Of a DNA stretch of 64,000 bases, positions 7,215-31,321 are shown piece by piece (within the stretch, counting starts at the first letter, position 1; each line of letters starts with the position of its first letter). The notes beneath the pieces were generated by a model. The model was not told the DNA's origin and did not search any database. It was given only the letters and a program-made list of their open reading frames with translations. The position numbers and the translations under genes are program-made. The stretch is from Promethearchaeia archaeon (lineage in GTDB: Archaea; Asgardarchaeota; Lokiarchaeia; Sigyniarchaeales; SOKP01), in NCBI GenBank assembly GCA_029856145.1, contig JAHQWK010000004.1:1-64000 (forward strand), written 5' to 3'.

Positions 7215-7343
7215 TTCTCTTACTCCTTATTTTTAAGTTAAATTGAATTTGATTTGTAAAAATATTGTATGCTTAGTTTAAATTCTTTTTCGAAAGTAGC
7301 TAAAAATTAAGTTTTTAGAGTTTTCTTAATGGACTTAAAACTT

Positions 7344-8039
7344 TTAAAAGTGAATAGGAAATTTCTTTTTTGATTCCTCCTTTGAAATGGTTAGAAGAGC
7401 TTCAGTTTCCACTAAGGCGTAAATTAAATCAGCAATTTCTTCATTACTTAATTTGAAAGATTTACTAACTTCTGTAAATAAATTATCCAATAAAATTTGA
7501 CCTTTTTCTTTATGAGCAAGAACTTTAGCAAATTGATAAATCTTTTTTGCTTTAGGAGGTAATTTTTTTCTTCTTGTTGAGCCTATTTTAAAAGGTAAAG
7601 TCAGATATAAATGGAAGATATCCTCCATTTCTTTATTTAAACTTTGTCGTGAATAAGGATCCTTTCGAAACACCGAGATATCTCCTTCGAATTTTGTGTA
7701 TAACTCTTGTATTTCTCTTTCGTATTGATTTTCAAATAGTTTACAGAAAAATTTCAATATTTCTCTCGTAAATCGAATAGGTTTATATTTAAGTATTAGA
7801 GTAATCCAAACTAATTTTCCAGCTCTTGTTATTAAATACTTCCCTTCGAGAGTAGCTTGTTCAATTTCCCCCTCTTCTGAAGGTAAATCTAATATCTCAT
7901 ACTGAACTGAACTTCGGAACATATCAAGTATGTCAGGATCGAAATCACCAGCTGTTTTATAATAAATAATCTCTCTCGATTCCCTATGAGTTATAACAAT
8001 ATATTCAATTGATAATGCTAAAGAAAGATACTCAGACAT
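7344..8039 (-). CDS. hypothetical protein, probable longin-like domain plus C-terminal winged helix
   Basis: beta-beta-alpha-beta-beta-beta-alpha pattern ending FEGDISVF; C-terminal HTH-like segment. Confidence 0.5.
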   Translation of the reverse strand: MSEYLSLALSIEYIVITHRESREIIYYKTAGDFDPDILDMFRSSVQYEILDLPSEEGEIEQATLEGKYLITRAGKLVWITLILKYKPIRFTREILKFFCKLFENQYEREIQELYTKFEGDISVFRKDPYSRQSLNKEMEDIFHLYLTLPFKIGSTRRKKLPPKAKKIYQFAKVLAHKEKGQILLDNLFTEVSKSFKLSNEEIADLIYALVETEALLTISKEESKKKFPIHF

Positions 8040-8330
8040 TGAAATCTGTACCTATCACTGTGATTTCTATGTATATTGAATAGTCCCTTTTTTATTTATA
8101 ATTTTGCTCATTAAATCCAAATAAGTAAGAATTTGTAAAGAAATTAAATCTAGAATCCTCCATTAGAGTAATTATTTGATATGTAAAAAAAAGGCTAAAA
8201 ATGTCATCATATTTTTATTCACATATAACTTACTATTTAACAAAATCATAACCGTTGTTTTTGGGTAATTTTTGAGTATATCATAGTCGTTTTAGAGTTT
8301 GCTGATAAATAACAATGATGGAGGATATAA

Positions 8331-10487: not shown

Positions 10488-10711
10488 TTCTTCTGAAAAT
10501 AAGTTCACTCTTTTACTCTTTTCAAAAATAGTTAAATAACAAAGGAGAATTAATAGAGAATACAGTATAGATTGAAATCTATACAAGTGCAAATCCAAAA
10601 AAAAATTTATTGAGTTGGGAAATTCTTCATCTTCAGAAATCCCTTACATGTTTTGAAACCTCGAAATATACATTTGAATTTAAAATTTACTCCAGAATAG
10701 AGAAAAGAGTG

Positions 10712-10858
10712 TGGAGAAGGGGAGATTTGAACTCCCGAAGGCCTTTGCCATTGTCCTACTAAGGCTGTTGCCTTTGTATCTGGATCTTAAGTCCAGCACC
10801 TATAGTCTTGACCCATTTTGGCGTAAAATGGCGATTGACCATGCTCGGTAACCTCTCC
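10712..10858 (-). tRNA. tRNA-Leu(UAA) with two non-canonical introns (21/22 and 43/44)
   Basis: acceptor GGAGAGG/CTTCTCC-A; anticodon arm CTGGA-CTTAAGA-TCCAG; T arm GGGAG-TTCAAAT-CTCCC; removing 10802-10834 and 10751-10779 gives an 85-nt class II tRNA. Confidence 0.9.
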
Positions 10859-11134
10859 AATGGTAAAAAACTGCTTTTTTTTTTAAGTAAGCAGTAATTC
10901 TAAGCTTTTAAGGGTGACAATAAATCAAAGTTATAATTTCAATTTAAATTTTTTCTTAGAAATAAGAGCATCTAGGATTTGATTTGTATTAATGGTCGGA
11001 TAAGATATACAAAAAAATAAAAAGAAATAAATAAAAGTAAGATATTAAATTAATAACATAAGTATTATTCTATAAAGTCTACAAATAAGTTTTCATAATT
11101 ATCATAAAATCGGTTAATCGAAAGGTATAAGATC

Positions 11135-11512
11135 ATGCCTGTAGGTATTCTTGTAATTCGTTGGGATAATGAGATTGGTCCAATTAATGAAGGTTTTTAT
11201 CCAGGTACTTTAAAGATCACGAATAATTTACTTACACAGGTGTATTCTTCACACAGGTACCAAAGTCTCAAACCTGGCTTCGCAAGCATCGCGCTAAAGA
11301 ATAATAAGGTTGTTTCCTTCTTCTCTGGAGTTGGACAAGACTTTATTTCAGTTGAAAATTATGTAGTCGCCCTTTTACTTCGACGAGATGAAAAACCGGC
11401 TAAATATCGGGAGATATTAAAGACAATTGCAGCTGAAATACTTGAAAAAATACCAGATGATACATTTAAAGAAGTTTTGCCTGGATTGTATGATCAATTA
11501 GCAAAGATCTAA
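11135..11512 (+). CDS. small longin/uDENN-like protein (NPRL2/C9orf72 N-terminal type)
   Basis: N-terminal ILVIRWDNEIGP resembles the uDENN/longin hhhxFDxxxGP start; 125 aa. Confidence 0.6.
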   Translation: MPVGILVIRWDNEIGPINEGFYPGTLKITNNLLTQVYSSHRYQSLKPGFASIALKNNKVVSFFSGVGQDFISVENYVVALLLRRDEKPAKYREILKTIAAEILEKIPDDTFKEVLPGLYDQLAKI

Positions 11513-11609
11513 AGCTATTTTCTTTTAATATTTAACTTATATCCAATAATTAAAGGGTCTTTAAGTTAAAAACTATAAAATTAGTACTTAAAAATAATAT
11601 TAAGAAGAT

Positions 11610-12614
11610 TTAAAATTTTTCCATACTTTTTACTACAATTTTCCCTCTATCATCTGTTTTGATAAGGCCAATATTTTCCAGTTGCTGAACATTCTTTTTT
11701 ACTGTAACAATAGGAATACCTAGCGCATTTTTAAGATCTTCTAATGAAATCCCTCCCACTTCTTCTATGATTAAAAAAGTTTTAAAAAGGGGTTCTTTTT
11801 CCATTATTGGTTTTAATTTATCATAATAATTTATTTTATCTATATTATCTTTTTGGAGAGTCTTGAGTTCATTAAGTTGTTTATTTACCTTTTCGACTTC
11901 TTCATTTGCGTCTCGATTTTTATCACTTAATTCTCCTACTTTAGCAATTAATTCATCATATTTTGATCTCATACTTTCAAATCGGGAAGCGAAATCTTTT
12001 GCTTCAGAAGTTTTTTCAGTGGAAATTAACTTACTGTCCATTAAAAAGGTATCAAGCTTATTTCTTTCTTCTTTTAATTCCGTTGTTTCTTTTCTATGTT
12101 TTTCTTCCAATTCTTGGATCATTTTAACTTGTTCTTCCTTAAATTTATCTGTAAATGCTTCTAATTCTTGTACTTTATTTTCCACGTTTTTCATTGCTTC
12201 ATTCTTCAAAATTAATTCAGAATTTTTTTCAGCTAACTCTGCTCTTAAATTCCCCAATGTTTCATATGCTTCTTCTAATTTGCTTTGAGAAGGAATTATT
12301 TGTTTTTTTACTAATTCTAATTCTTTTTGAGATTGAGCAACCTCGCCTTTAGCATATTCTAATTCAAGTTCTTTTTCATTAATAATTTGGCGTTGTGCTC
12401 CAATCAATTCTTTTAATTCAAGTATATCTTCAGGGATATCAGTCATTTTTGAAAGTTTTGTTTTTTGTTGTTCAATAATACCCTCTTGTTCACTGATAAT
12501 ACGTTTTTGTCGTTCTGCTAATGCAGTTAATTTATCGGCCTTTGCTTGTAAATTAGCCATCTCTTTTTCACTGGATTCAATACTATCCAATGTTTTTCTT
12601 AAATCTTTAGGCAT
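11610..12614 (-). CDS. long coiled-coil protein with C-terminal winged-helix domain
   Basis: ~270 aa of E/K/Q-rich heptads, then ISLEDLKNALGIPIVTVKKNVQQLENIGLI. Confidence 0.7.
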   Translation of the reverse strand: MPKDLRKTLDSIESSEKEMANLQAKADKLTALAERQKRIISEQEGIIEQQKTKLSKMTDIPEDILELKELIGAQRQIINEKELELEYAKGEVAQSQKELELVKKQIIPSQSKLEEAYETLGNLRAELAEKNSELILKNEAMKNVENKVQELEAFTDKFKEEQVKMIQELEEKHRKETTELKEERNKLDTFLMDSKLISTEKTSEAKDFASRFESMRSKYDELIAKVGELSDKNRDANEEVEKVNKQLNELKTLQKDNIDKINYYDKLKPIMEKEPLFKTFLIIEEVGGISLEDLKNALGIPIVTVKKNVQQLENIGLIKTDDRGKIVVKSMEKF

Positions 12615-12835
12615 AGTTAAATTACTCCAAAATTTAATTCAAAATAGATATTTTGTGATACTTTAATAGTTAAAATATTTATTAAATTTTTTAAATAAGA
12701 CTTGTAATTATTAAGAGAGATTAGTTTTAAATAATTTTCGAAATAAAAAGCTCATTTTAATACATAAATCTCTTTATTTTTAATGCCTATTATTATGGAA
12801 ATTAATATATATCGTTAAAGCTTTTAATTAATATT

Positions 12836-14038
12836 ATGGTATTGATAACTCCACTAAAACCATATATACCGGTTAATCCAGAAGAATTCTGCACTAATCC
12901 ATACGATATTATAAGTAAAGAGGAAGAGAATGAGTTAAAGAGAAATTCAAAATCATTAATACATCTTATTTTACCAGATGGAGAAGGTGATGAAATTTAT
13001 CAAAATGCTGCTAAGGCATATAATAATTTTAAAGAAAAAAGAATCATAGAGCAGGAAGAAAGTCCAAGTATATTTATATATCGACAGGAATCAGTAAATT
13101 TTAGTCATCAAGGATTAATAATGGGGGTTGCTCTTCAGGATTATGAAGATGGAAACATAGTAAAACATGAACATACTCGAGAAAAGCCACTTAAAGACCG
13201 TACCAATCATATTGTCTCATCAGACGTTGCAGCTGGTTTAGTTTGGACGGTTTTTCAAGCTAATAAAAAAATAAATACTTTAATTGAAATAATTAAAAAA
13301 AAAGAGTCAAAATTTAACTTCGAGAAATATGGATATCGTCATCTATTATGGCAAGAAACTGATCCTAAAGTAATCCAAAAATTAAAAGGATTATTTAAAA
13401 ATGAAAAGATTTACATTGCAGATGGACATCACAGAGCTGCTAGTGCTGCGGAATACCGTAAAATAAAACTGGAAAAATCAGGTGTGGATAAAAGTACAAA
13501 AGCTCCTTGGCAAAATCTACTATCCTACGTAGCATCAGACGATCAAATATGTATTCTACCATACAACCGTGTTATTAAAAAATTACCTTTAACGGAGAAT
13601 GATTTCTTAAAAAGGATTGAAAGCGATTTTGAAACACTTTCTATGAAGAATGCTTTTAATCCAGAAAAGAAAAATGAAATCGCAATTTGTATAAAAGGCT
13701 CATGGTATAAGCTATTAGTTAAAAATAAAAAATTTAAAACTAAACGAGATAGTCTAGATGTTGCCATTCTTCAAGATAAAATTTTGGAACCTATTCTAAA
13801 CATTAAAGACCCTCGTTCCGATGAGAATATCTTCTTTGTAGGAGGTATACAAGATCCCAAAGAAATGGAGAAATATGTTACAAATGAAGGAAATGATTTA
13901 TTTGTTAATTTATATCCAATAGATATCAGAGATTTGGAATCAATTGCAGATAAAGGTGGTGTAATGCCCCCAAAAAGCACTTGGTTCGATCCAAAAGTTC
14001 TCTCGGGATTAATTTTACACGATTTAGGAGAAAATTAA
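12836..14038 (+). CDS. DUF1015 family protein (ParB/Srx-like fold)
   Basis: PYDII, KHEHT, IADGHHR and MPPKSTWFDPK motifs. Confidence 0.9.
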   Translation: MVLITPLKPYIPVNPEEFCTNPYDIISKEEENELKRNSKSLIHLILPDGEGDEIYQNAAKAYNNFKEKRIIEQEESPSIFIYRQESVNFSHQGLIMGVALQDYEDGNIVKHEHTREKPLKDRTNHIVSSDVAAGLVWTVFQANKKINTLIEIIKKKESKFNFEKYGYRHLLWQETDPKVIQKLKGLFKNEKIYIADGHHRAASAAEYRKIKLEKSGVDKSTKAPWQNLLSYVASDDQICILPYNRVIKKLPLTENDFLKRIESDFETLSMKNAFNPEKKNEIAICIKGSWYKLLVKNKKFKTKRDSLDVAILQDKILEPILNIKDPRSDENIFFVGGIQDPKEMEKYVTNEGNDLFVNLYPIDIRDLESIADKGGVMPPKSTWFDPKVLSGLILHDLGEN

Positions 14039-14052
14039 AAAAAATTAATTGA

Positions 14053-14985
14053 TTATTTACTTTTTAGAAAATTTGTCATTTTTTCTGCAACCATAGTAGC
14101 CGCAGCTGTTTGGTTTTCAATACTCTGGGAAGCTATGTGTGGAGTAAGCACGAGATTCTCATCCCAGTTAATTATTTCTTGATCTTTTAACGGTTCTTCA
14201 CGATACACATCAAGAGCAGCACCAGCAATATCTTTGTTCTTCAATGCTTTCAATAAAGCTTTATCGTCAATTAAATTACCTCTTGCGGTATTTATCAGAA
14301 TTGCATCTTTTCTCATTAAGTTTATTCGCTCTTCGTTGATTATATTTTCAGTTTGGGGAGAAGAAGGAAGATGTAATGAAACAACTTGGGCGTCTTTTAA
14401 TAAATCTTCAACTGAAGGATAAATTGAGCATCCTATTTCTTTAGCCTCATCAATAGCAACTTGACCTTTACTAAATCTAGAATAGACTCCAACATCCATT
14501 CCTATAGCAATTGCAATTTTTGCTAAATGTTTTGCGATATTTCCAAAACCTAGTAACCCAAGTTTCTTTCCATTTAAAGTATATCCTAAGCATTTATTTT
14601 TATTCCATTGCGATTCGTGGGTTGTACGATCAGCATAGGAAATCTTTCTTGCGAGTGTTAGTATTAATCCCAATGCAAATTCTGCAACTGATACAGCGGG
14701 GGCTTCAGGAGTATTTAAAACCTCTATGTTTAATTCAGCAGCTTTTTTTCGATCTACATTGTCTAAACCAACTCCTGCTCTTCCAATAACTTTAAGATTT
14801 TTTGCGTTTTCTAATACATCGGCAGTCAATTTTGTTCTTGAACGAATTACAATCCCGTCATAATCTCCTATTTCCTGCTTTAGTTCTTCTTTAGAAATTG
14901 TAAACTTTTTAATAACTTCAAATCCATTATCTTCAAATATTTTGATACCCGCATCTTGAAGTTTATCACTAATTAATATTTTCAT
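14053..14985 (-). CDS. serA: D-3-phosphoglycerate dehydrogenase / D-2-hydroxyacid dehydrogenase
   Basis: IGRAGVGLDNVD, GFGNIA, INTARG, DVYREEP, TPHIA; adjacent class V aminotransferase. Confidence 0.8.
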   Translation of the reverse strand: MKILISDKLQDAGIKIFEDNGFEVIKKFTISKEELKQEIGDYDGIVIRSRTKLTADVLENAKNLKVIGRAGVGLDNVDRKKAAELNIEVLNTPEAPAVSVAEFALGLILTLARKISYADRTTHESQWNKNKCLGYTLNGKKLGLLGFGNIAKHLAKIAIAIGMDVGVYSRFSKGQVAIDEAKEIGCSIYPSVEDLLKDAQVVSLHLPSSPQTENIINEERINLMRKDAILINTARGNLIDDKALLKALKNKDIAGAALDVYREEPLKDQEIINWDENLVLTPHIASQSIENQTAAATMVAEKMTNFLKSK

Positions 14986-15160
14986 TTATATCACATGGAT
15001 TGGTTTTAATTAAATTGAATACGATTTTTAGTTTTTAAATCTTTAAAGAGTTTTTGTTATTTTATCTATTCCCATTTTCAATTTAAAGACAGTTTTAGTA
15101 AAATTACCAAAAAAATAAAATAGAATTAATTAAAGAATTAAATTATTATATTTTCTGTAT

Positions 15161-16276
15161 TTATTTCAGATCACTTATAATATCTGCTAATACTTTTAAC
15201 ATCTTTTCAAGGTCTTTGATTTGAATTTCACCCATATGACCAATCCGAAATGTTTTATTTACAAGTTGTCCATACCCATTCACAATTCGGTAACCTTTTT
15301 CTAGAAGTAAAGAAACCATTTTTGGAATATCAAGATCTAATGAATTCTTTATTGTAGAAACGGTATTTGACTCATATCCCTTCTCAGGGAACATCTCAAG
15401 ATTGAGATCTTCAGTCCACTTACGTGTGTGTTTTCCAAGTTGTTCATGTCTTTCAAATCTTTTCTCTAAACCTTCTACATTCAGTATGTATTCTAATTGT
15501 GCAGTTAAACCTCTTATTTGGGGTATAGGTGGAGTCGTTGGAGTCTGATATTTAGCGACATGTCTTTTTTTCAATCCAATGAAATCGAAATAAAGACCTC
15601 TATTTTTTACTTGTTCGGCTTTTTCAACTGCTGCATCAGAAATAGAACAGACAGCAAGTCCAGGTGGTAACGCAAAACATTTTTGAACAGAAGCTAAACA
15701 AACATCTATACCTAATTTGTCAACTTCTATTTTCACTCCTGCCATTGAAGAGGTGGCATCTATACATAATAACGCTCCTGAATCTTTAATTATTGGTGCT
15801 ACTTCATCAATTGGATTATAAACTCCGGTAGATGTTTCATTGGCTTGAATGAAAACAACCGCATATTTATCCTTGTTTAAAGCTTCTTGAGCGAATTCTG
15901 GGGTTATTGGATTGCCCCACTCAACTCCTTCTTTAACAGAATTCTTTCCATTGGTCACTCCTATCTCGTACCATCGATCTCCAAAAGCTCCAATTGAGAA
16001 GAATAACCCTTTTTCATCTTCCTTAACTAGATTTCTCACACAAGCTTCCATTATCCCTGTTGCACTTGATGTAAAAATTAAACATTCATTTTTAGTATAT
16101 AATAGCTTCTGAAGGCCTTCCGCAACCAATTGATGCATTTCTGAATAAGGTTTAGATCTATGAGTATCATTAGGTTTTGCCATTTCCTTGAGAACTCTTT
16201 CTGGAACATGAACGGGTCCGGGAGTGAATAACTTCAATTGTGAACCTTTCTCTTTATCAAAATGAATATCAGTCAT
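15161..16276 (-). CDS. class V PLP aminotransferase (serine-pyruvate/phosphoserine aminotransferase type)
   Basis: LFTPGPV, NETSTGV, DATSS, SVQKCFALPPG (PLP Lys), FRIGHMG. Confidence 0.9.
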   Translation of the reverse strand: MTDIHFDKEKGSQLKLFTPGPVHVPERVLKEMAKPNDTHRSKPYSEMHQLVAEGLQKLLYTKNECLIFTSSATGIMEACVRNLVKEDEKGLFFSIGAFGDRWYEIGVTNGKNSVKEGVEWGNPITPEFAQEALNKDKYAVVFIQANETSTGVYNPIDEVAPIIKDSGALLCIDATSSMAGVKIEVDKLGIDVCLASVQKCFALPPGLAVCSISDAAVEKAEQVKNRGLYFDFIGLKKRHVAKYQTPTTPPIPQIRGLTAQLEYILNVEGLEKRFERHEQLGKHTRKWTEDLNLEMFPEKGYESNTVSTIKNSLDLDIPKMVSLLLEKGYRIVNGYGQLVNKTFRIGHMGEIQIKDLEKMLKVLADIISDLK

Positions 16277-16367
16277 AATTGCTTCAATTTTTTGATTAAT
16301 TAAAATTTTTAGTTCTGATACTTTAAATTAAGTTGTAAGGGGTAATAAATTATTTATTATTTCTTAT

Positions 16368-17021
16368 TTATAATTTGGATAATACTAAGTTTCCATTTCT
16401 ATCTATGTATATTAAGTAATCAGAGATAATATATAAGAAGATTTTAAAATTCCTTATATGCACGATAGATAATCCAAATTCGCTTAAGTATAATGCAGCT
16501 CTACTTAATATATTAAATAAAAATGTGAGAGATAGTGCAACAATATTAAATACAAGATTATTCATTAAATTAGCGAATACTAACAAGGTTATTAGTATAG
16601 TGATGATACCAACAATAATAGTCATTAATCGGTGTTTTTTTGAATAGATATCAATTATAGACCCTTTTATAATACCTGCAAATCCAACAATTATCATTGG
16701 TAATGAAATTAAACCTATTAACACATGAGGAGTAACGTTAGGTTGTATTAATATAAACCATAAAAATAATATTGAAACTATAAGACTAACAATTCCAAAT
16801 AAGAATTTAATCGGATTTCTCTCCCTTGCATTCCTTTTATTAAAAAATTCAATAATCTTTAAAACGCCATAAACTGCTAAAGATACGAAAGGATAGACAA
16901 TTATAGATACAAGCACTTCCAAATGGAAAAAAACAGCAAACAAAACAAAAATAATGACTATTGTAACACTAATATAGTCATCAGCTTTAATTTTATTTTT
17001 GTTTATCAAATCCAGGCTCAT
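16368..17021 (-). CDS. DUF308/HdeD-like membrane protein
   Basis: 6 TM segments in two repeated hairpin units. Confidence 0.55.
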   Translation of the reverse strand: MSLDLINKNKIKADDYISVTIVIIFVLFAVFFHLEVLVSIIVYPFVSLAVYGVLKIIEFFNKRNARERNPIKFLFGIVSLIVSILFLWFILIQPNVTPHVLIGLISLPMIIVGFAGIIKGSIIDIYSKKHRLMTIIVGIITILITLLVFANLMNNLVFNIVALSLTFLFNILSRAALYLSEFGLSIVHIRNFKIFLYIISDYLIYIDRNGNLVLSKL

Positions 17022-22336: not shown

Positions 22337-23458
22337 ATGGCTCTTAAGTTAGAAGATATTAAAGGTCTTGGTAAAAAAATCGACACTTTAAAAGAAGCAG
22401 GGATAGATTCAGTTGAAAAATTAGCAAACTCAAAGATTGAAGCATTAACTGAATTAAAAGGAATTGGAAAAGCTACTGCCGAAAAAATTGTTGATAATGC
22501 AAAAGATTTGCTAAAAAACTCTAAAAGTGATTCTGGAGGAGTTTTAGATAAAGAGGTACTAGATAAATCTGAAATTCAGAAAGAAAAGAAAAAAGCAGAA
22601 GAAGAGATCAAAAAATTAGAAGAGAAGAAAACCAAATTACAAGGTAAAAAAGTTGAAGATGGCAATTTTATCCTTGTAAAAATTACTGCTCGTACTCAGA
22701 AAGGTACTATTTTTAGAGTTTCTTCTGAAGAAGATGCAAGAAAAGCGGGGATATATGATGAAAAAAAAGCGAAACAAGGATATTATACTCCTGAATTTAT
22801 TATAGTAGGAAAACCAGGATTTGTAAATGAAGGACTTACTGAATTTATTAAAGAAATGAATTATTTTGAGAAGAAGTCCGTAAGAATTCCTCCTACCAAA
22901 GCTTTTGGAAAACGGGATCCCCAAAAGATTGAAAGAATTGGCATTGCAAAATTCAGGAAACTCAATGAGGGGAAAAACCCTGAAATTGGTCAAGAATTTG
23001 TGAAAAAATCTCAGGGACAAGCACAAAGAGGGACTGTAACGAATGTCATGCAAGGAAGAGTTATAGTAGATTATAATCATCCGTTAGCAGGACAAAGTAT
23101 TGATTATAATTTAGAAATTATAGATAAAATTGAAGATTTCCATGAAAAAATAGAGTATTTCATGATAAATAAAGGAATTCCATCTGAAAATGTTCCCGAT
23201 TTTCAAGTTAGTTATATTCCTAAAAGTAAGACTCTTGAGATTATTATTCCTAAAATGTTTCTGTTTCAAAATTTAACCTATATTAAATTTGGATTAGCAA
23301 TGGATCTTCAAACTCACATGTTGGAAGACATTGATGATGTTAAGTTTATTGAGATTTATGAAAAGATACCTTTACCAGAGACACCATCTGAATCGGTTAT
23401 GAAAAAAGTTGAGGAATTCAATAAAGAACAAAAAGAAAAAGAAGAGAATGTAGATTAA
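22337..23458 (+). CDS. slyD: FKBP-type peptidyl-prolyl isomerase (long archaeal SlyD) with N-terminal HhH domain
   Basis: IPPTKAFGKRDP, VDYNHPLAG; N-terminal LKGIGKATAEKI. Confidence 0.85.
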   Translation: MALKLEDIKGLGKKIDTLKEAGIDSVEKLANSKIEALTELKGIGKATAEKIVDNAKDLLKNSKSDSGGVLDKEVLDKSEIQKEKKKAEEEIKKLEEKKTKLQGKKVEDGNFILVKITARTQKGTIFRVSSEEDARKAGIYDEKKAKQGYYTPEFIIVGKPGFVNEGLTEFIKEMNYFEKKSVRIPPTKAFGKRDPQKIERIGIAKFRKLNEGKNPEIGQEFVKKSQGQAQRGTVTNVMQGRVIVDYNHPLAGQSIDYNLEIIDKIEDFHEKIEYFMINKGIPSENVPDFQVSYIPKSKTLEIIIPKMFLFQNLTYIKFGLAMDLQTHMLEDIDDVKFIEIYEKIPLPETPSESVMKKVEEFNKEQKEKEENVD

Positions 23459-23468
23459 TAATAAACCT

Positions 23469-24437
23469 TTAAGTTATTTTGAGTTTAGTAACAAGTTCTT
23501 CCTTTTTTTTAGCTTTCTCTTTTTTATATTCTGCCTTTTTCTTACGATATTGCGAGCTTTTTCGTTGATAGTTCATTCTCCTCTTCAATGATTTTCCTTT
23601 TTTTTTTAAATACTCCTTTCTGGCTTTCTTATATTCCTTTTTTGCTTTTTTATATTCCTTTTTTGTTTTTTGATATTTTTTATATCTCTTCTTTATTTCA
23701 TGTCGAAGATCTCTACTGATGTTTCCTATTCCTAATTCATTTAATTGTTCTTTGAACTTATTAAATGATTCAAATCTAATTACTATAAAACCTAACTCTC
23801 TGGCTGGAACTAGATTTTGAATTTTATCATCAATAAAAACGCATTTTTTTGGCTTTGTATCTAATTTTTTTAACATATACTTATATTTATCCATATCTGG
23901 TTTAATAAAACCAATCTCATTCGATAAGAAGACATTATCAAAAATATCGTAAAAACCCCTTAATAAATTCGATTTAGCATGAATACCATGAGTATTAGAC
24001 ATCAAACTTACGGTATAATCTGCTTGATGCAAACGTTCTATTATTTCTGCCATTTCGGACGATATATTTGTTACCTGAGAATAGAGATCAAACCATAAGT
24101 CAATATAATACTCTGTATTTACTTTTTTTGGGGGTAAAGCTCCATTTTTGTTTTGAAAAGGATAATAGTATTTTTTAAAAATTTTTTCTAGAAAATCTTG
24201 AGAAGAAATTCTACCAGAACTTAAACCTCTTTTATTTTTTCTAATATACGAATTCTCATTACGAGGAATGGATATATTCAAATCTGATTCAATCATATCA
24301 AGTACGTTCTTTAATACAAAAGTTTTTTCAATCATCACACCCCCAAAATCAAAAATGAAGTGTTTAATCTTATATAATCTGACTTTTTGTTTTTCCCCAT
24401 AAATCTTAGATTTGGATAGTTCCTCTTGACCAATCAT
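23469..24437 (-). CDS. HAD-superfamily phosphatase (YihX-like) with Lys-rich C-terminal tail
   Basis: FIFDFGGV, MSNT, KPD, FIDD motifs; C-terminal KKEYKKA-type repeats. Confidence 0.85.
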   Translation of the reverse strand: MIGQEELSKSKIYGEKQKVRLYKIKHFIFDFGGVMIEKTFVLKNVLDMIESDLNISIPRNENSYIRKNKRGLSSGRISSQDFLEKIFKKYYYPFQNKNGALPPKKVNTEYYIDLWFDLYSQVTNISSEMAEIIERLHQADYTVSLMSNTHGIHAKSNLLRGFYDIFDNVFLSNEIGFIKPDMDKYKYMLKKLDTKPKKCVFIDDKIQNLVPARELGFIVIRFESFNKFKEQLNELGIGNISRDLRHEIKKRYKKYQKTKKEYKKAKKEYKKARKEYLKKKGKSLKRRMNYQRKSSQYRKKKAEYKKEKAKKKEELVTKLKIT

Positions 24438-24466
24438 CTTCTAGATAATTCAAGAAAGAATTATTA

Positions 24467-25258
24467 TTAACGATTATGGTCTTCTTTAACTAGTTTTAAG
24501 ATTAAATTGCAAATTTCTTCAACTGGAGAATTTTCACACTTCCAGTTTGTGAATTCAGGAAATGATCCAGGATCCACAATATACAATTTATTACTAATAT
24601 GTTCTCTAACAATATCTAAATGGCCAAATAATACTTTTCCATCAAAATATTTTTTCCATTTCTTTATTAATAATTTAATATCATTTGGAGTTTTGATTTT
24701 TTCCATGTCAGTATGCTCATTTGATAAAGGAGCTTTAACTAAGGTACAAATATTATCATCTATGAAATAAACAGTATAATGTATGCCTTCAACATATTTC
24801 TCTAAATATAATATTTTATTATTCCCATTATTCAAATCTTCAAATGATTCAATAATTCTTACGCCCCTACTTCCAGAACCCATTATAGGTTTTAAGATTA
24901 GGGGGAAATCTTCTAATTGAAGTCGATCTCTAAAAGTTTCCGAAGTTCCTAAATAGATATCAGGCGTTAAAAAGCCAATAGACTTAAGCAAAGAATGAGA
25001 TTCTATTCGATTTTTCTGTTTAAAAGAAATGTGAGGATCTGGGATAACTGGAATATTATTGGCTTTCAAATAATAACCCGCATAAATAAAAAAGAGTGAT
25101 TTCGATTTTAAAATATAAAAATCATTATTAAAAAGAGACTCATTTATTACTAGATTTTCCATGGTATATATTGAAACAATATGACCTTTATTTTCAAAGA
25201 ATTCTTTTATCTTGCCCGTCATCATTGTTGTTCTTTTTGATAAAATACCAATCTTCAT
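24467..25258 (-). CDS. ATP-grasp protein (RimK/ITPK1-like, divergent)
   Basis: PLILKPIMGSGSRGV, LEKYVEG, GHLD, YIVDPGSFPEF. Confidence 0.75.
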   Translation of the reverse strand: MKIGILSKRTTMMTGKIKEFFENKGHIVSIYTMENLVINESLFNNDFYILKSKSLFFIYAGYYLKANNIPVIPDPHISFKQKNRIESHSLLKSIGFLTPDIYLGTSETFRDRLQLEDFPLILKPIMGSGSRGVRIIESFEDLNNGNNKILYLEKYVEGIHYTVYFIDDNICTLVKAPLSNEHTDMEKIKTPNDIKLLIKKWKKYFDGKVLFGHLDIVREHISNKLYIVDPGSFPEFTNWKCENSPVEEICNLILKLVKEDHNR

Positions 25259-25272
25259 TTTCTTTTTTACTT

Positions 25273-26091
25273 TTATTTTTTTGCTTGTTCTAATAGAAAA
25301 TCTGCGACAATTTTATGACCATCTTTCATATAATTAAAATTGGGAGTACAATTAATATCAGTTAGAAAAAATTGATTATCACTTAATTTCAAAAAATCAA
25401 GAGAAGTCACTTTTAGATCCATAACTTCCATTGCCTTATAACAATATTCCTTTAATTCTGGAATTTCTTTTATTTCTTGTCTAGATTCCAATTTATTGGG
25501 ATTTAATAATATCGGCAATTGTTTATAGAAATACACATTTTCTCCAATGCCATAAATCTTATATTCCCATTCACTTTTAATGAATTTCTGATAGTAAAGA
25601 TACTTGTAATTAATATCTGTTCCGTCAACTTCATCCAAAGCTCTTTTATCTGCTACCTTAAAGTGACTATTTTGTTGACTAATTATGGGATGAAATTTAT
25701 AATTTCTCTGGTCAACGATGTTTTTTATAATAAAATCATTAAATGGAGGCAAAGAGCCCTCCGGGTTCAATGAAAAATCTGGTACTGGTATACCTGCTTT
25801 TCTTAGATAAGTACTATTGAGGAACCGATTAACTGCTAAGCAAATTGCCTTATAAGAATTTATTACCGGAACTGAGGTTTGGCCTTCAATGAGTTTTATT
25901 ATTCCCAAAATTAAAGTGCCCTTTGCTTTAACGAAGAATATATCCTCATCGAAATCCACTTCAGAACTCTTTAAAAGATATGATTCTTCGATATAAAGAT
26001 TCACTTCTGCTATAGATCTTAAATATTCTAAAAAATCTGTGACTTTGTAATTTAAATGATAATTATCAATTATTATACCTACTTTTCTCAA
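25273..26091 (-). CDS. ATP-grasp protein (ITPK1/RimK-like)
   Basis: YQKFI, EYKIYGIGE, SLDF, TDINCTPNF. Confidence 0.75.
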   Translation of the reverse strand: MRKVGIIIDNYHLNYKVTDFLEYLRSIAEVNLYIEESYLLKSSEVDFDEDIFFVKAKGTLILGIIKLIEGQTSVPVINSYKAICLAVNRFLNSTYLRKAGIPVPDFSLNPEGSLPPFNDFIIKNIVDQRNYKFHPIISQQNSHFKVADKRALDEVDGTDINYKYLYYQKFIKSEWEYKIYGIGENVYFYKQLPILLNPNKLESRQEIKEIPELKEYCYKAMEVMDLKVTSLDFLKLSDNQFFLTDINCTPNFNYMKDGHKIVADFLLEQAKK

Positions 26092-26307
26092 TTTTCAACC
26101 TAAGAAGCATGTTTTAAAGAAAAATTGTGCTTTTCTTGATATAAATTAAATAAATAATATAAATAAAATTGATATAAATTCTGAAGCTTCTTTTATTCTA
26201 AGAATTGACTACTCCATAATATATATGTATAAATATTCGTATATAGAAACATTAGATTTATAAATGTTAATTTACTCATAATCTATTAAAAAATTAGGGT
26301 TTTTTGG

Positions 26308-27216
26308 GTGTCTAATAAGCTAAGTAGAATCTACATAGGCTCTATTTACAATCGCGATCTCGAAGTTTTCGAGAAAATCAAAAAATTCTGTAATAAAAAC
26401 TATAATCTTTCTATTATAAACCTTTTAAAGAAAGGTTCGAATTCTTTTAACATTAAGTATTTTAAAAAACAATTAAAAAGATACCCTATTTCATTAATAA
26501 TTGTTAAAATTTTTTCTGAAGAATCAAATCAAGAAATCTACCAAGCAATTCGAGAGATCGCTCCAAATATCCCTCTATTAAATAGCTCAAGAGCGATTGA
26601 GATATGTGAAAGTAGAATTAAAACTTTTAAATTCATTGAACAAAGAGTAAAGAAATTAAACATCCCTAAAACATATTTTTCTATGAAAGAAGCTTATAAT
26701 GCCTGTTCTAATGGCACTAAAGTTATTATAAAATTAGATACCCATAATATGCCAAATTTACCAAAAAAAGATAGAATTATCGGAATAGCAGAAAATATCC
26801 CCCAATTCAAGAAATTGGTTGAAAATTATCGAGAAGACGATTTATTTTTCCAAACCTACTTAGGAAGTTTTGATATCATTTATAAAATATATGTAGTTGA
26901 TCGTTGGGCAGTATCAATTACATCTCATGATAGATTACAACAAAAAGATAATTTATCTCCATTAGAATTAATCCATATTCGAATATCTATCGAGAAACAA
27001 TTGAAGAGAAGAATTTTAAGATTAGGAAGAAAAATGGGTATGTCTGTTTTTGGTGTTGATTATATATTAACGGAAGAAGGGATACCATTCATCATAGATA
27101 TTAATGATTTTCCAAGTTTCAGAAGGATACCTGAAGCAGTGAGTTTGATATCAGATTATATCTATAACATAGTTATCATGCAACATCAACGGTTTAGAAT
27201 TCCTGCTAAAGTTTAA
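26308..27216 (+). CDS. ITPK1-like ATP-grasp inositol phosphate kinase
   Basis: YKIYVVD; FGVDYI...IIDINDFPSF matches the ITPK1 signature FGxD...IDINxFPGY. Confidence 0.7.
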   Translation: MSNKLSRIYIGSIYNRDLEVFEKIKKFCNKNYNLSIINLLKKGSNSFNIKYFKKQLKRYPISLIIVKIFSEESNQEIYQAIREIAPNIPLLNSSRAIEICESRIKTFKFIEQRVKKLNIPKTYFSMKEAYNACSNGTKVIIKLDTHNMPNLPKKDRIIGIAENIPQFKKLVENYREDDLFFQTYLGSFDIIYKIYVVDRWAVSITSHDRLQQKDNLSPLELIHIRISIEKQLKRRILRLGRKMGMSVFGVDYILTEEGIPFIIDINDFPSFRRIPEAVSLISDYIYNIVIMQHQRFRIPAKV

Positions 27217-27239
27217 GGTTAAAAATAAGAATTATTACT

Positions 27240-28331
27240 TTATCGTTCTCTCTTATTTTCTAAAAACTCTAAAAGTCTTTTTTTAGCGATATAATCATCT
27301 AATTGCTCTGGAGGATGTTTTGCAAAGAAAGAACAAGCTGATTGAAGAATACCTCCAATATTTCTGTCTTTTGCAATTTTGCTAACCCTAATACAATCAG
27401 CAATAATTCCTGCTGAATTATTACCATCTTCTACAAACATAGTAATATCAACTCTGACTGGAGCACCTCCAAAAACTCTACCTTCTAGTCTCATATAAGC
27501 TTCTTTTTGATTTTTTAGAAATGGAATATAATCTACAGCAGAAATTTGACAATCTATTGTATCTTTATTCGGGAGATTGGCAATTACCGCTTCAGTCTTT
27601 GACTGTCGTTTTCCCTCTTCATATCTTAATAAACCATTCTGCATTGGTGTTAATAAATTACAAAAGTCACTAGAACCCCCCCAATCAAGTTGAATTGTTT
27701 TATCTAATATGGCTCCCCGCATTGGAAAGAGACTAGTTAAGGCCCTATGAATGATAGTAGCCCCTATTTGGGATTTTACATCATCTCCCATTAACGAAAG
27801 GTTATTTTCTTCGGCTTTTTTAACAATTTCTGGATCTTTAACTACATGCGAAGGCATTCCATTTACAACACATGATCCTGCTTCAAGCGCACTCATAGCA
27901 TAAAATTTTACGGCTTCATGCGATCCTGTTGGAAGCAAGATTACAGTAACATCTGTATTTCTATTTTTTATTTCGTTAACAACATCCGTAGGATTTTGAT
28001 TATTATCTACTGGTATTATGGCTTTAATATTACTGTCTAATCCATCCATTACTGGACCTTTGATTACAGGAGCATTTAAATAATTAGGTTCAAAAAGTTT
28101 CATATTACAATTTGGTTCCGCAAAAATTGCTTCACTCAAATCTTTTCCAACTTTGTTTAAATTAACATCGATTCCTAAAACAAAATTAATGTCACTAATA
28201 CTATAGTGGATAATTTCTGGAAGGATCCCTATTGTTTTTTCGGGATTTTTCTTGTAGTTCGCACAACCTTGCACAAGGGCTGATGCTACATCACCTACTC
28301 CAACTATGGCAACATTTATTTTATTCGCCAT
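27240..28331 (-). CDS. ino1: myo-inositol-1-phosphate synthase
   Basis: VAIVGVG, KVGKDLSEAIFAEPN, GDDVKSQIGAT, SKTEAV, FFAKHPP. Confidence 0.93.
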   Translation of the reverse strand: MANKINVAIVGVGDVASALVQGCANYKKNPEKTIGILPEIIHYSISDINFVLGIDVNLNKVGKDLSEAIFAEPNCNMKLFEPNYLNAPVIKGPVMDGLDSNIKAIIPVDNNQNPTDVVNEIKNRNTDVTVILLPTGSHEAVKFYAMSALEAGSCVVNGMPSHVVKDPEIVKKAEENNLSLMGDDVKSQIGATIIHRALTSLFPMRGAILDKTIQLDWGGSSDFCNLLTPMQNGLLRYEEGKRQSKTEAVIANLPNKDTIDCQISAVDYIPFLKNQKEAYMRLEGRVFGGAPVRVDITMFVEDGNNSAGIIADCIRVSKIAKDRNIGGILQSACSFFAKHPPEQLDDYIAKKRLLEFLENKRER

Positions 28332-28376
28332 GATATTTTGTATAATAAAGTGATTATATTTAAATTATTTTAAAAT

Positions 28377-29285
28377 ATGGTATATGATAATATGGTTAAA
28401 AAAGTAGTTTTTTCAGCAAATCAAGATCATGTAGTAATTAAAAAGTTAATTAACAAATTAAAAAAAATAAAAGAATTTGATTTAATCTTCCATGATCCTA
28501 CAAAAGACTTTTTTTGCCTTTCTGATATGCCAGAACAGTTTAAGAATGCAGATCTAATCATTCTAAAGGTAAGAAATGAATGTTCTATTGATCTATTGCA
28601 TTTTGCTAAATTTTATAATATACCTACTCTACATGATGTAGATACAGTGTTAAATTGTAAGAATAAAATTGCTCTTGATTATGGATTAAGGAAAGCTTTG
28701 AATGATCATAAAAAAGATGTAGAAAATATTCTAATGCCTGACTCATGGAATCATTCTTTATCAGATGTTAATAAATTTAAAGAATGGGCTTTACCAAAAT
28801 TACCTATAGTTATTAAAAGTCATAATCAGCATGATAAATATAATCGATTTAATTTCTTAGTCCAAAAAATTGAAGAGGTTGAAAAATTCTGTGAAAGATA
28901 TAAGGAATTCTTATATTATGATGTATATGTACAAAAATTCATTGAATGTGATGGAATCGAGCGGAAAATATACGTAATTGGTGATAAGGTTTTTGGTATT
29001 AAAAGAGAAAACCCTATTTATAAATTTTTAAGAGAAAAACTTGACTATATCGATGTTAGTTTAATTGAACGGGAAAGTTTTGAAATTACAGAAGATATTA
29101 TAAAACTTTCAAACATTTTATCTGCAGATTTAAACCTTGAGATATTTGGCTTTGATCTGATTCGCCCAATTGACCAGAATATATACTATCTTATCGACTT
29201 AAATGATTTTCCAAGTTTCAAAGGAATTCCACATATTGAAAATGAGTTAAAGGATTTTATTTTAAATTATGTAATAAATCTTTAA
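28377..29285 (+). CDS. ITPK1-like ATP-grasp inositol phosphate kinase
   Basis: PIVIKS, VQKFI, KIYVIGD, FGFDLI...LIDLNDFPSFKG. Confidence 0.75.
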   Translation: MVYDNMVKKVVFSANQDHVVIKKLINKLKKIKEFDLIFHDPTKDFFCLSDMPEQFKNADLIILKVRNECSIDLLHFAKFYNIPTLHDVDTVLNCKNKIALDYGLRKALNDHKKDVENILMPDSWNHSLSDVNKFKEWALPKLPIVIKSHNQHDKYNRFNFLVQKIEEVEKFCERYKEFLYYDVYVQKFIECDGIERKIYVIGDKVFGIKRENPIYKFLREKLDYIDVSLIERESFEITEDIIKLSNILSADLNLEIFGFDLIRPIDQNIYYLIDLNDFPSFKGIPHIENELKDFILNYVINL

Positions 29286-30127
29286 GCTATAATCATGAAA
29301 GGTATTATTATTAGATAAGCTAATACTCCATACAAAATACAAAAGTACCCAAAGCTAATTTTTTGAGCAACTCGGAGTAAAAATTCTATAGTTAAATAGC
29401 CTACCAAGAAGCTAATTAATGTAGTACTAATAATCAAGAAGAAATTTAAGGTTCCAAAAATTGATCCTTCTCCAATAATAATATCAACTATAATAGAAGC
29501 AATAGCAACTGGTACCAACATTAAAAAACTCAATCTTAGTGCATTATCTTGGTTATATTTTTCCAATAAAATAGCTGAAACAGTAATTCCAGAACGGGAA
29601 ATACCTGGCAATATAGAAACTCCTTGAATAAGACCAGATAAAAAGCTGTCTTTTGGTATAAAATCTTTCGAAATTTCTTCTAGAGTGTTTTTTCCATAGA
29701 TTTTCCTTGTTTTTAGTAAAATAATCCCCGTAATAATTAGTAAACCTGAAATAATTAGTGTTATTAAATCTCCTTGGTAGGCAGTAAACGCACCTGAAAT
29801 GATTATTCTGAATATAAAATAGAGCGGTAAAGCGGTAATTCCTGATCCCAAGGTAGCATAAATTAACCAATTTCTTTTTTTGATATCTATTTCATCCACT
29901 ACATATTTTTTTGGTAAAAAACTTCTAAATATTTTAAAAAAATCAGTTCTAAATTTTAATAAAACGGCTAATGTCGTACCTAAATGTAACCAGATTGCAA
30001 GGCTGTATGCTTCTTCAGGAGAAATCCCAAAGATATTCATTGATACGATAAATGTCTGGCCACTGGATGATATTGGGAGCCATTCAAAGAGACCTTGTAA
30101 TATTGCAATAATAATAAACGCTATCAT
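29282..30127 (-). CDS. uppP: undecaprenyl/polyprenyl-diphosphate phosphatase (BacA/UppP)
   Basis: QGLFEWLPISSSG, LHLGT, PGISRSG. Confidence 0.92.
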   Translation of the reverse strand: MIAFIIIAILQGLFEWLPISSSGQTFIVSMNIFGISPEEAYSLAIWLHLGTTLAVLLKFRTDFFKIFRSFLPKKYVVDEIDIKKRNWLIYATLGSGITALPLYFIFRIIISGAFTAYQGDLITLIISGLLIITGIILLKTRKIYGKNTLEEISKDFIPKDSFLSGLIQGVSILPGISRSGITVSAILLEKYNQDNALRLSFLMLVPVAIASIIVDIIIGEGSIFGTLNFFLIISTTLISFLVGYLTIEFLLRVAQKISFGYFCILYGVLAYLIIIPFMIIA

Positions 30128-30130
30128 AAT

Positions 30131-30610
30131 TTAAAACTCATATTTATTTAGTCCTTTCATTAAACAATCAATAATTTCATTTCGGGCTTTTCTAAAACCT
30201 TCTAGTTCTTTCATACCTGGATCTTCAATATCTCCGCTTTCTCCAGCAAATTCTTTAATAGTTAATATCTCCTTACTATCAACATTAAAAAAATCATTGA
30301 TTTCTTCCTTATGTTTATTTGTTAATGTGAGAATCAAATCTGCATCCTCAATTATTTTAGGATACTTTTTCAAATCTCTAGATAAAGCACTTTCAGATAA
30401 TTTAATCCCCATTTCTTCCATAGCTAATTTAGCATCCATTGATATTAACATACCATCTCGTGCGTTTGAAGCTATCCCACCAGAAAATACTTCTACTTCT
30501 AAATTGATTTTCGAAAAAAAGTCTTTTAAGAACCCTTCAGCCATACGCGACCTAGCTGTATTCACTGAACATACAATTAAGAGATACCGATAAGGAAATT
30601 TTGTATTCAT
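30131..30610 (-). CDS. low molecular weight protein phosphatase / ArsC family
   Basis: P-loop CSVNTARS (CX5R), DIEDP. Confidence 0.88.
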   Translation of the reverse strand: MNTKFPYRYLLIVCSVNTARSRMAEGFLKDFFSKINLEVEVFSGGIASNARDGMLISMDAKLAMEEMGIKLSESALSRDLKKYPKIIEDADLILTLTNKHKEEINDFFNVDSKEILTIKEFAGESGDIEDPGMKELEGFRKARNEIIDCLMKGLNKYEF

Positions 30611-30646: not shown

Positions 30647-31321
30647 TTATTTAAAACTCTTACTATTTACAAATTTTATTCCAGTTTTATTCATGTTTTC
30701 TAAAGCGTTTTTTATACTACCTTCTGGTAAATTGACACCCCTAGTTAGATCTACTAAAAAATACACTCTATAATCAAATTCAAATCCATCCATAGCTGTA
30801 TAATAGCAACAATAATCTAATGCTAACCCACATACAAAAATTCGTCGGATTCTTTTAGAATTTAAATAATCTCTCAATCCAGTTTCAGAGTTCTTATCAT
30901 TATCTCGGAATCCAGAATAACTATCCACATTTGGGTTCATCCCTTTTTGGATTACTTTGTCTGCTAAATCAATTTTTAAATCATTATGAAATTCTGCTCC
31001 TTTAGTATTTTGTACACAATGATCTGGCCATAAAACGGGACCTATAGCTCCATCTTCAGATGTAAATTCATCACCAGGAGATTTACCAGGGTGATTACTC
31101 GCAAATGATAAATGATTTTGTGAATGCCAATCTTGAGTTAACACTACTGTTGCTTTATTTTTTTTGAATAAGTTAGCAGTTTGATTAATATCCTCTATAA
31201 TTAGATCTCCTTCCTCAACAGGCAATGATCCCCCAGGTGTAAAATCATATTGCATATCTACAATAATCAAGGCATCCCTTGTATTAATCTTGATTTCTTT
31301 TTCAAATATCAATTGGTCCAT
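30647..31321 (-). CDS. pncA: nicotinamidase/pyrazinamidase
   Basis: VDMQYDF, DWH, WPDHC, DSYSGF, GLALDYC. Confidence 0.93.
   Translation of the reverse strand: MDQLIFEKEIKINTRDALIIVDMQYDFTPGGSLPVEEGDLIIEDINQTANLFKKNKATVVLTQDWHSQNHLSFASNHPGKSPGDEFTSEDGAIGPVLWPDHCVQNTKGAEFHNDLKIDLADKVIQKGMNPNVDSYSGFRDNDKNSETGLRDYLNSKRIRRIFVCGLALDYCCYYTAMDGFEFDYRVYFLVDLTRGVNLPEGSIKNALENMNKTGIKFVNSKSFK

Follow-up and report, generated by a model that had tools for sequence, protein, structure and literature searches.

A Lokiarchaeial gene cluster of inositol-3-phosphate synthase with two ITPK-family ATP-grasp proteins and a divergent, co-inherited ATP-grasp pair

The window analysed in this work is a stretch of 64,000 nucleotides (positions 1 to 64,000 of contig JAHQWK010000004.1, assembly GCA_029856145.1) from a Promethearchaeia archaeon of the class Lokiarchaeia, and the subject of the work is the group of genes at positions 23469-30610 that surrounds a gene for inositol-3-phosphate synthase of the Ino1 type (MIPS). 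Sequence comparisons indicate that this locus is orthologous to the published Lokiarchaeal cluster of inositol-3-phosphate synthase (IPS) genes and ITPK1 homologues, the core of which is already known (Desfougeres et al., 2019, PNAS, PMC6900528). In the reading that we favour, with a probability of about 60%, the two ATP-grasp proteins encoded on either side of MIPS, KA and KB, would be inositol-phosphate kinases of this orthologous cluster, two more divergent ATP-grasp paralogues, KC and KD, would form a pair of one active and one degenerate member, and a phosphatase of the HAD family would be an accessory. The source genome comprises 3.55 Mb in 32 contigs and is 97% complete; the window is AT-rich, with a G+C content of about 29%, and the nearest relatives of its proteins carry Promethearchaeota or Lokiarchaeota names.

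All of the open reading frames (ORFs) that an earlier note on this DNA had described are present between 23469 and 30610, and its observation of a MIPS gene flanked by two ATP-grasp genes with the motif D(I/L)NDFPSF agrees with both the ORFs and the motifs of KA and KB. The genes for KC (25273-26091), KD (24467-25258) and the HAD protein (23469-24437) form a tight unit on the minus strand, with a gap of 14 nt between KC and KD and of 29 nt between KD and HAD. KC is divergent from KA (26308-27216, plus strand) across a spacer of 216 bp (26092-26307), which by direct reading is AT-rich and presumably contains promoters. KA converges on MIPS (27240-28331, minus strand) with a gap of 23 nt, and MIPS in turn is divergent from KB (28377-29285, plus strand) at a spacing of about 45-60 nt. 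As the orthologues of KB are 297 aa in length, its true start is probably Met6 at 28392. A scan for bacterial-type promoters gave results no better than those for shuffled sequences, and terminator-like sites were few.

An inositol-3-phosphate synthase gene between a pair of ITPK1 homologues is also what the main text of the Lokiarchaeum report describes, for the same lineage and with four such homologues, LcIKA-LcIKD, that flank two IPS genes in two pairs (Desfougeres et al., 2019, PMC6900528). The mention of Lokiarchaeum ITPK1-like genes in the earlier note accords with this source. Two differences were observed: one locus is present in our source genome whereas two are found in Lokiarchaeum, and the main text of that report describes ITPK1 homologues only, the KC-KD pair and the HAD gene being unmentioned there. 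In sequences from Loki's Castle, LCGC14_1122870 (81% identical to MIPS) and LCGC14_1122880 (73% identical to KB) are on one contig of 10,497 bp and have adjacent locus tags, from which alone the adjacency of the genes is deduced. Later papers restate the Lokiarchaeum ITPK1-homologue finding, and we found no later biochemistry on the archaeal enzymes in the literature.

MIPS and the two ITPK-family proteins KA and KB

MIPS (PF01658, 73 bits) was matched over its full length (residues 3-357) by Ino1 of M. tuberculosis (1GR0) with an E-value of 1.6e-80, and it is the one PF01658 match, and the sole MIPS-family gene found, in the source genome. Its score against TIGR03450 (298 bits) is under the equivalog cut-off, and because the second-best structure is a five-membered cyclitol-phosphate synthase (E 2.2e-42), the product specificity of the enzyme is to be taken as predicted.

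Both KA and KB scored above the gathering cut-off of the Pfam family PF05770 (Ins134_P3_kin), which is 23 bits, KB with 43.8 bits (E 2.7e-11) and KA with 23.8 bits, and both contain an ITPK1-like motif (IIDINDFPSF in KA and LIDLNDFPSF in KB). In single-sequence searches of the PDB, the top matches of both proteins were ITPK1 entries, and RimK entries were either absent or marginal. When profiles were used, that of KB retrieved ITPK1 and ITPK4 structures exclusively (best E 1.1e-08), and that of KA had human ITPK1 at the top (4.8e-07) and ITPKs in rows 1-10, with no RimK/LysX structures listed. Profile comparisons by hhalign were made with 25 ITPK-type sequences and 29 Asgard RimK/LysX sequences, for which the two sets aligned with each other provide a baseline of 1.8e-15. 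KB gave 7e-25 with the ITPK set versus 9.4e-14 with the RimK set, and KA 1.6e-17 versus 2.6e-09; the ITPK set was taken from the matches of the KB profile, and the comparison is thus biased in favour of KB but not of KA. The KB profile, searched against 1.84 billion representative proteins, found 441 at E <=1e-3, a family that is small by this count, unlike the very large RimK superfamily. The best 150 of this search included 101 full-length proteins, all of them with PF05770 (40 also with a RimK match), and among the matches were proteins of Tetrahymena and of marine protists, which matched KB reciprocally.

In a maximum likelihood tree of 98 rows, rooted on RimK, KA and KB branched inside a clade of 65 rows that also holds the eukaryote-type ITPK clade, with support by the Shimodaira-Hasegawa-like approximate likelihood ratio test (SH-aLRT) of 92 for the larger clade and 100 for the eukaryote-type one. 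In a 2026 preprint, the eukaryotic ITPK1 clade has Asgard sequences as its sister group.

Lys142, Lys193, Asp251, Asp264 and Asn266 are invariant in KA, and Lys147, Lys197, Arg210, Asp260, Asp274 and Asn276 are conserved in KB; of these, D251/D264/N266 and D260/D274/N276, respectively, would be the metal ligands, in the Asp...Asp-x-Asn pattern of ITPKs. This metal site and the ATP-grasp fold family are shared with the eukaryotic ITPK1/ITPK enzymes of known structure (2q7d and 2odt, human; 7tn6, maize; 1z2n, Entamoeba). In human ITPK1, His167, Lys199 and Arg212 are described as contact residues for the inositol phosphate (main text of Desfougeres et al., 2019, PMC6900528). In an alignment that is uncertain in the loops, their equivalents in KB are K197 and R210, the His being ambiguous within an invariant His/Lys/Arg-rich loop (148-159), and those in KA are H146 and K193, with Ser206 at the Arg site. 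On this alignment an equivalent of Lys199 is present in KA and KB (and in KC, at the position where RimK has Arg), and one of Arg212 in KB. KA and KB differ from ITPKs in their length of about 300 aa and in the D-x-N-Y-F-P motif, where the column that is Tyr in most ITPKs is Asp in both of them. KA is also very basic (pI 9.7).

By these sequence-based tests, KA and KB are assigned to the ITPK family and not to RimK. The earlier note had proposed that the locus encodes four ITPK1-like kinases, and for KA and KB membership of the ITPK family is supported by PF05770, the PDB searches, hhalign and the tree, as is their physical link to MIPS by the gene order. The grouping with RimK/LysX peptide ligases, which the same note had named as the outcome that would speak against it, was not seen for these two proteins in the PDB profile searches, the hhalign comparisons or the tree.

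The divergent ATP-grasp pair KC and KD

For KC and KD, the proposal of ITPK1-like kinases is not supported, as both have better scores with RimK/LysX profiles and KD is without two active-site residues. KC had no Pfam match, KD matched the generic ATP-grasp_3 domain only (32 bits), and neither passes PF05770, which was detected in one of 10 KD orthologues (3.6e-04). Searched against the PDB, the KC profile found ArgX/LysX (8.1e-05) and a ligase of ribosomally synthesized and post-translationally modified peptides, and the KD profile found PurK, ArgX and Ddl, which are generic ATP-grasp matches; ITPK was absent from the results of both searches. By hhalign, the RimK and ITPK sets gave 5.3e-17 versus 2.9e-08 for KC and 1.7e-14 versus 7e-10 for KD. 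On these profile scores, the possibility that KC or KD is a hidden ITPK was rejected, and both are placed outside the ITPK family proper.

The same scores argue for a different explanation of the locus, which we consider unlikely overall but the strongest of the alternatives, namely that carboxylate-amine ligases like RimK and LysX are encoded by KC and KD, or conceivably by all four genes. Their product would be peptide-like or decorated with amino acids, perhaps a solute derived from inositol, and they would not act as kinases of inositol phosphates. In agreement with this, the best PDB matches of KC in both sequence and fold are ArgX/LysX/RimK, the compact three-domain size and fold of these ligases (3vpb, 3vpd, 5zct; PF08443) are shared by KC and KD, a Gly-rich ATP loop of the RimK type (KPIMGSGSRGV) is retained in KD, alone of the four proteins, and the NCBI names for these proteins are those of RimK-family ligases. 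However, the metal site points in the other direction. It has Asp in all of 25 ITPK-type sequences and Glu in all of 14 RimK sequences (the genome's own and 13 others from Asgard genomes), and KA, KB, KC and KD alike have Asp; moreover, the E-x-N metal site and the W-K-x-N...G substrate motif of RimK are found in none of the four. No protein of the window matches PF08443 at E <=0.01, the best value for KC orthologues being 0.0036, and for KA and KB every test favours ITPK. In the tree, KC and KD are sister paralogues (SH-aLRT 93); where canonical RimK separates from the ITPK-like proteins (SH-aLRT 95), they fall with the latter, an observation given little weight in view of their long branches.

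The predicted fold of KC adds little to this comparison. An AlphaFold2 model of KC, with a predicted local distance difference test (pLDDT) score of 88, shows a compact ATP-grasp fold, for which Z-scores were 22-23 with LysX/ArgX/RimK (top 23.2), 21 with PPIP5K2 and 20.5 with ITPK1; the Foldseek E-values of ArgX/LysX, ZmITPK1 and PPIP5K2 likewise lie within two orders of magnitude of each other. Because these families are nearly tied, the modelled fold does not decide between ligases, PPIP5K and ITPK. The model of KD is poor (pLDDT 64, with the central domain below 50).

The two paralogues differ in what they retain of the active site. The catalytic set of KC is kept (Lys123, Lys178, Asp232, Asp245 and Asn247), with a D-x-N of the ITPK type and without the RimK Gly-rich loop, and its equivalents of the three human contact residues are H134, K178 and, at the Arg site, Gln191; in KD no identical residue is present at any of these sites, both assignments being subject to the same uncertainty of loop alignment. 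KD retains the ATP lysine and both Mg aspartates (D215 and D229). However, in all of the 22 orthologues compared, which come from seven genera, Gly stands in place of its metal Asn (Gly231 in the window), and at the position of ITPK1 Lys199, where RimK has a conserved Arg, the same 22 proteins have T, N, L or I and never a basic residue. As two universal active-site residues are lost in KD and the set in KC is complete, KD is probably a non-catalytic partner of KC. It is an intact ORF in about 100 genomes, and for this reason KD is a maintained gene and probably encodes a degenerate subunit.

Because the Asp-x-Asn site is present and the ligase motifs are absent, KC and KD may work in a kinase-like manner. 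A precedent for a RimK-like ATP-grasp fold that acts on inositol phosphates is provided by PPIP5K/Vip1/Asp1 (3t9b, 8e1v, 9gr8). The KC model matches it with a Z-score of 21 over 260 residues, which is a likeness of fold only and not above that to the ligases, and in the PDB search no sequence match of KC or KD to PPIP5K was found at E <=1. In a speculative and rather improbable reading, KC and KD would form a heteromer of a catalytic and a degenerate subunit, and ATP-grasp kinases of inositol phosphates would have evolved independently a third time, beside ITPK and PPIP5K. Together with KA, and with KB elsewhere in the neighbourhood, this heteromer would convert the product of MIPS to highly phosphorylated inositols in an archaeon that would lack IPMK and IP5 2-kinase.

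Inheritance and distribution of the cluster

The synteny survey that the earlier note had suggested showed that the arrangement recurs in about 100 related genomes, and for this reason it is not due to chance. Within the genus, synteny extends over the whole stretch, from the radical-SAM and FKBP-HhH genes to the isochorismatase gene and two membrane-protein genes, and the HhH-FKBP fusion gene (22337-23458 in the window) borders the cluster in the whole family. Beyond the genus, in members of the family with 42-82% identity to the window, the KD-KC-KA-MIPS genes are always contiguous, and this applies to every locus examined (six genera, 42-91% identity); KA and MIPS are always immediate convergent neighbours. 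KC and KD are adjacent wherever both are found, and their presence or absence by genus is identical but for one genus, whose single genome has KD where a contig stops and gives no strong match to KC. In the metagenome-assembled genome (MAG) CR_4, from a different Lokiarchaeial family, a KA-like gene is next to a KC-like one, and MIPS is absent from their vicinity.

The family includes another three genera in which the same slot holds radical-SAM, FKBP, one or two unrelated genes and then KB, and the HAD-KD-KC-KA-MIPS block is missing from it. After KB, UppP and isochorismatase genes follow in two of the three genera, and in the third only isochorismatase is found, some kilobases on. Of five such genomes, four have MIPS of other types elsewhere. 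The co-inherited unit therefore consists of KD-KC, KA and MIPS, as judged by the pattern across genera and not by statistics, related genomes not being independent samples. KB is an older resident of the slot, and the block seems to have been either inserted or lost beside it. A distant ITPK-like ATP-grasp gene of a second Lokiarchaeial family is in head-to-head arrangement with an FKBP-like gene (34-37% identical; L027:7532-8602 and L028:7939-9051, locus numbers being ours), and because of this adjacency the FKBP/KB neighbourhood may be older than the MIPS block.

The genes found between KB and MIPS outside the window are varied. They encode solute-binding proteins, a major facilitator superfamily (MFS) transporter and a protein of about 810 aa, and one genome has additional MIPS paralogues and dehydrogenases there. 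The protein of about 810 aa is conserved, has no Pfam domain, occurs in either orientation in several genomes (L016:9194-11626, L019:6353-8734, L022:10011-12446, L023:7639-10074, L024:10080-12542 and L034:12486-14924) and is absent from the window. A gene for about 430-445 aa, also without a counterpart in the window, is divergent from KB and next to it in other genera (L032:8161-9492, L033:8610-9881, L034:14929-16251 and L056:7762-9093); the two copies that were scanned are MFS transporters, and an MFS fragment of 173 aa is at L020:10278-10799. The genome with extra paralogues (L035; G076:C9) has three tandem MIPS-family genes at 12981-16456, which are 32%, 40% and 76% identical to the window MIPS, and between KB and the block, at 6865-12715, a short-chain dehydrogenase, a Zn-dehydrogenase and a DHDPS-family gene.

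The phosphatase genes at the two ends of the cluster have a different standing. The HAD protein, of the HAD-IA (YihX-like) kind, matched PF00702 (52 bits) and PF13419 (40.7 bits), the Hydrolase and HAD_2 families, and its NCBIfam matches, to HAD-1A3 and glucose-1-phosphatase models, were all below cut-off. Its motif I is FDFGGV, with no second Asp two residues past the nucleophile, a feature that we take to be shared by E. coli YihX. The C-terminal region of about 80 aa (23469-23720) is a Lys/Arg-rich tail of repeated KKEYKKA-like units, and the pI of the protein is 9.9; in other genera BLAST matches cover 66-80% of the query, and the tail is apparently variable. The HAD gene, which the earlier note had counted as part of the cluster, is the last gene of the KC-KD-HAD unit, but it was unmatched in seven of 12 loci from other genera (one of these cut at a contig end) and doubled in one, and it is thus an optional accessory of that unit.

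The UppP/BacA gene (29282-30127) and the gene for a low-molecular-weight (LMW) phosphatase/ArsC-like protein (30131-30610), both recognized from the ORF list and Pfam, form with an isochorismatase-family gene (30647-31321) a separate minus-strand operon that is convergent on KB, with a 4-nt overlap between the 3' ends of UppP and KB. UppP and the LMW phosphatase, which had been listed as members of the cluster, were on this ground rejected as phosphatases of the pathway. A role for UppP is further disfavoured by its presence (where it occurs) next to KB, together with isochorismatase, even without the MIPS block. No LMW-phosphatase match was found in the KB loci that lack this block.

To determine the distribution of ITPK-like genes, 301 Asgard genomes from 70 genera were searched for PF05770 at E <=1e-4. 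Matches were found in 61 of 68 genomes of the source Lokiarchaeial family and in one of seven of a second family; the 225 genomes from 28 other Asgard families gave none. This restricted distribution weakens the suggestion of the earlier note that the locus is an archaeal precursor of eukaryotic inositol phosphate signalling. A small number of other Lokiarchaeial genomes encode weaker, hybrid RimK/ITPK-like proteins, the gene contexts of which are unrelated, and a search for related loci with KC led exclusively to Lokiarchaeial contigs. One of them (L153; DATKTW010000070.1) is labelled 'Candidatus Nanopelagicaceae bacterium'; as it has 31% G+C and carries the complete cluster with its flanks, it is almost certainly a mis-binned Lokiarchaeial contig and not a case of gene transfer. 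Near-identical copies of the genes (70-89% identity) are also found in public MAGs labelled at NCBI as Thor-, Hod-, Hermod-, Odin- or Promethearchaeota, and because these labels vary, record names are an unreliable means to gauge the spread of the cluster.

Proposed pathway and its significance

In the proposed pathway, MIPS, whose family assignment is secure, would convert glucose-6-phosphate to inositol-3-phosphate, and KA and KB would most likely phosphorylate this product or low inositol phosphates, at the expense of ATP, to higher soluble forms without a lipid step. The kinase role is suggested by family membership, by linkage and by the complementation of yeast by a Lokiarchaeum homologue, LcIKC, which in the main text of the report partly restored inositol hexakisphosphate (IP6) in plc1-delta cells (Desfougeres et al., 2019, PMC6900528). 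KC and KD, as a tandem pair inherited in one block with KA and MIPS, would act on a related substrate, either by adding a further phosphate to an inositol phosphate, as is done by PPIP5K with its RimK-like fold, or by ligating something to an inositol derivative. The HAD protein, where present, would remove a phosphate, and UppP, the LMW phosphatase and the isochorismatase would be neighbours of the pathway and not parts of it. The self-contained route from Glc6P to InsPn with position-specialised kinases that the earlier note had envisaged would be a conjectural form of this pathway.

A number of observations weigh against this pathway. The likeness of KA and KB to ITPK1 is concentrated in their C-terminal half, and a PF05770 match alone is not specific, since many bacterial RimK-type clusters in a language-model atlas have one too. 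The N-terminal pre-ATP-grasp domain PF17927 was detected in none of KA, KB, KC and KD at E <=0.01; as it is present in no more than 26 of the 101 closest relatives with PF05770, this domain marks the eukaryote-type subgroup and not the whole PF05770 family. In the source genome no match was found to the IPK family, nor to IP5 2-kinase and SPX, although for the latter two the controls were also silent and their absence is weak evidence. The rescue by LcIKC was weak, as that main text reports (Desfougeres et al., 2019, PMC6900528). Lastly, the source genome contains five CDP-alcohol transferases and two IMPase-family genes, and MIPS therefore has ordinary roles available to it.

These ordinary roles, together with the family-wide synteny, are the basis of another explanation, in which linkage would for the most part reflect an inherited order of genes, with MIPS serving inositol lipid head groups or solutes, KA and KB acting on some other phosphorylated metabolite, and no dedicated inositol polyphosphate pathway. 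Adjacency alone proves little, because synteny within the family covers all of the 12-kb neighbourhood, which has radical-SAM and FKBP genes at one end and UppP and isochorismatase at the other. KB persists in genera without the MIPS block, and one of these genomes (G053, genus g12), which is 100% complete, has a KB orthologue (L053:9143-10030, 43% identical) and no PF01658 match anywhere. In other genera KB and MIPS are separated by 0.1-10 kb of variable genes, and in many genomes by 1-10 kb; the window MIPS is also the only one in its genome. However, inherited order does not readily account for a KD-KC-KA-MIPS block that is gained or lost as a unit with its flanks remaining, or for the constant convergent pairing of KA and MIPS. 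Furthermore, ITPK1 enzymes are reported to act in vitro as kinases of Ins(3)P and Ins(1)P and to rescue IP6 synthesis in yeast, as the Lokiarchaeum homologue does in part (main text of Desfougeres et al., 2019, PMC6900528). We therefore regard an explanation by gene order as improbable, and prefer that of an IPS/ITPK cluster with KA and KB as putative inositol-phosphate kinases.

Soluble inositol polyphosphates are regarded as a eukaryotic system for signalling and phosphate sensing, and the 2019 report on Lokiarchaeum is the main argument that a lipid-independent route to them predates eukaryotes. That claim gains no new principle from the window, although it is sharpened in three respects. 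The inherited unit consists of four genes, KD-KC, KA and MIPS, and not of 'IPS plus two ITPKs'. Among the Asgard genomes sampled, the ITPK-like genes are almost confined to one Lokiarchaeial family, and this distribution calls for caution before they are named the ancestor of the eukaryotic system. Finally, two of the four genes of the block make up KC-KD, a conserved pair of which we found no description in the papers searched, and this pair is a modest lead beyond the known core.

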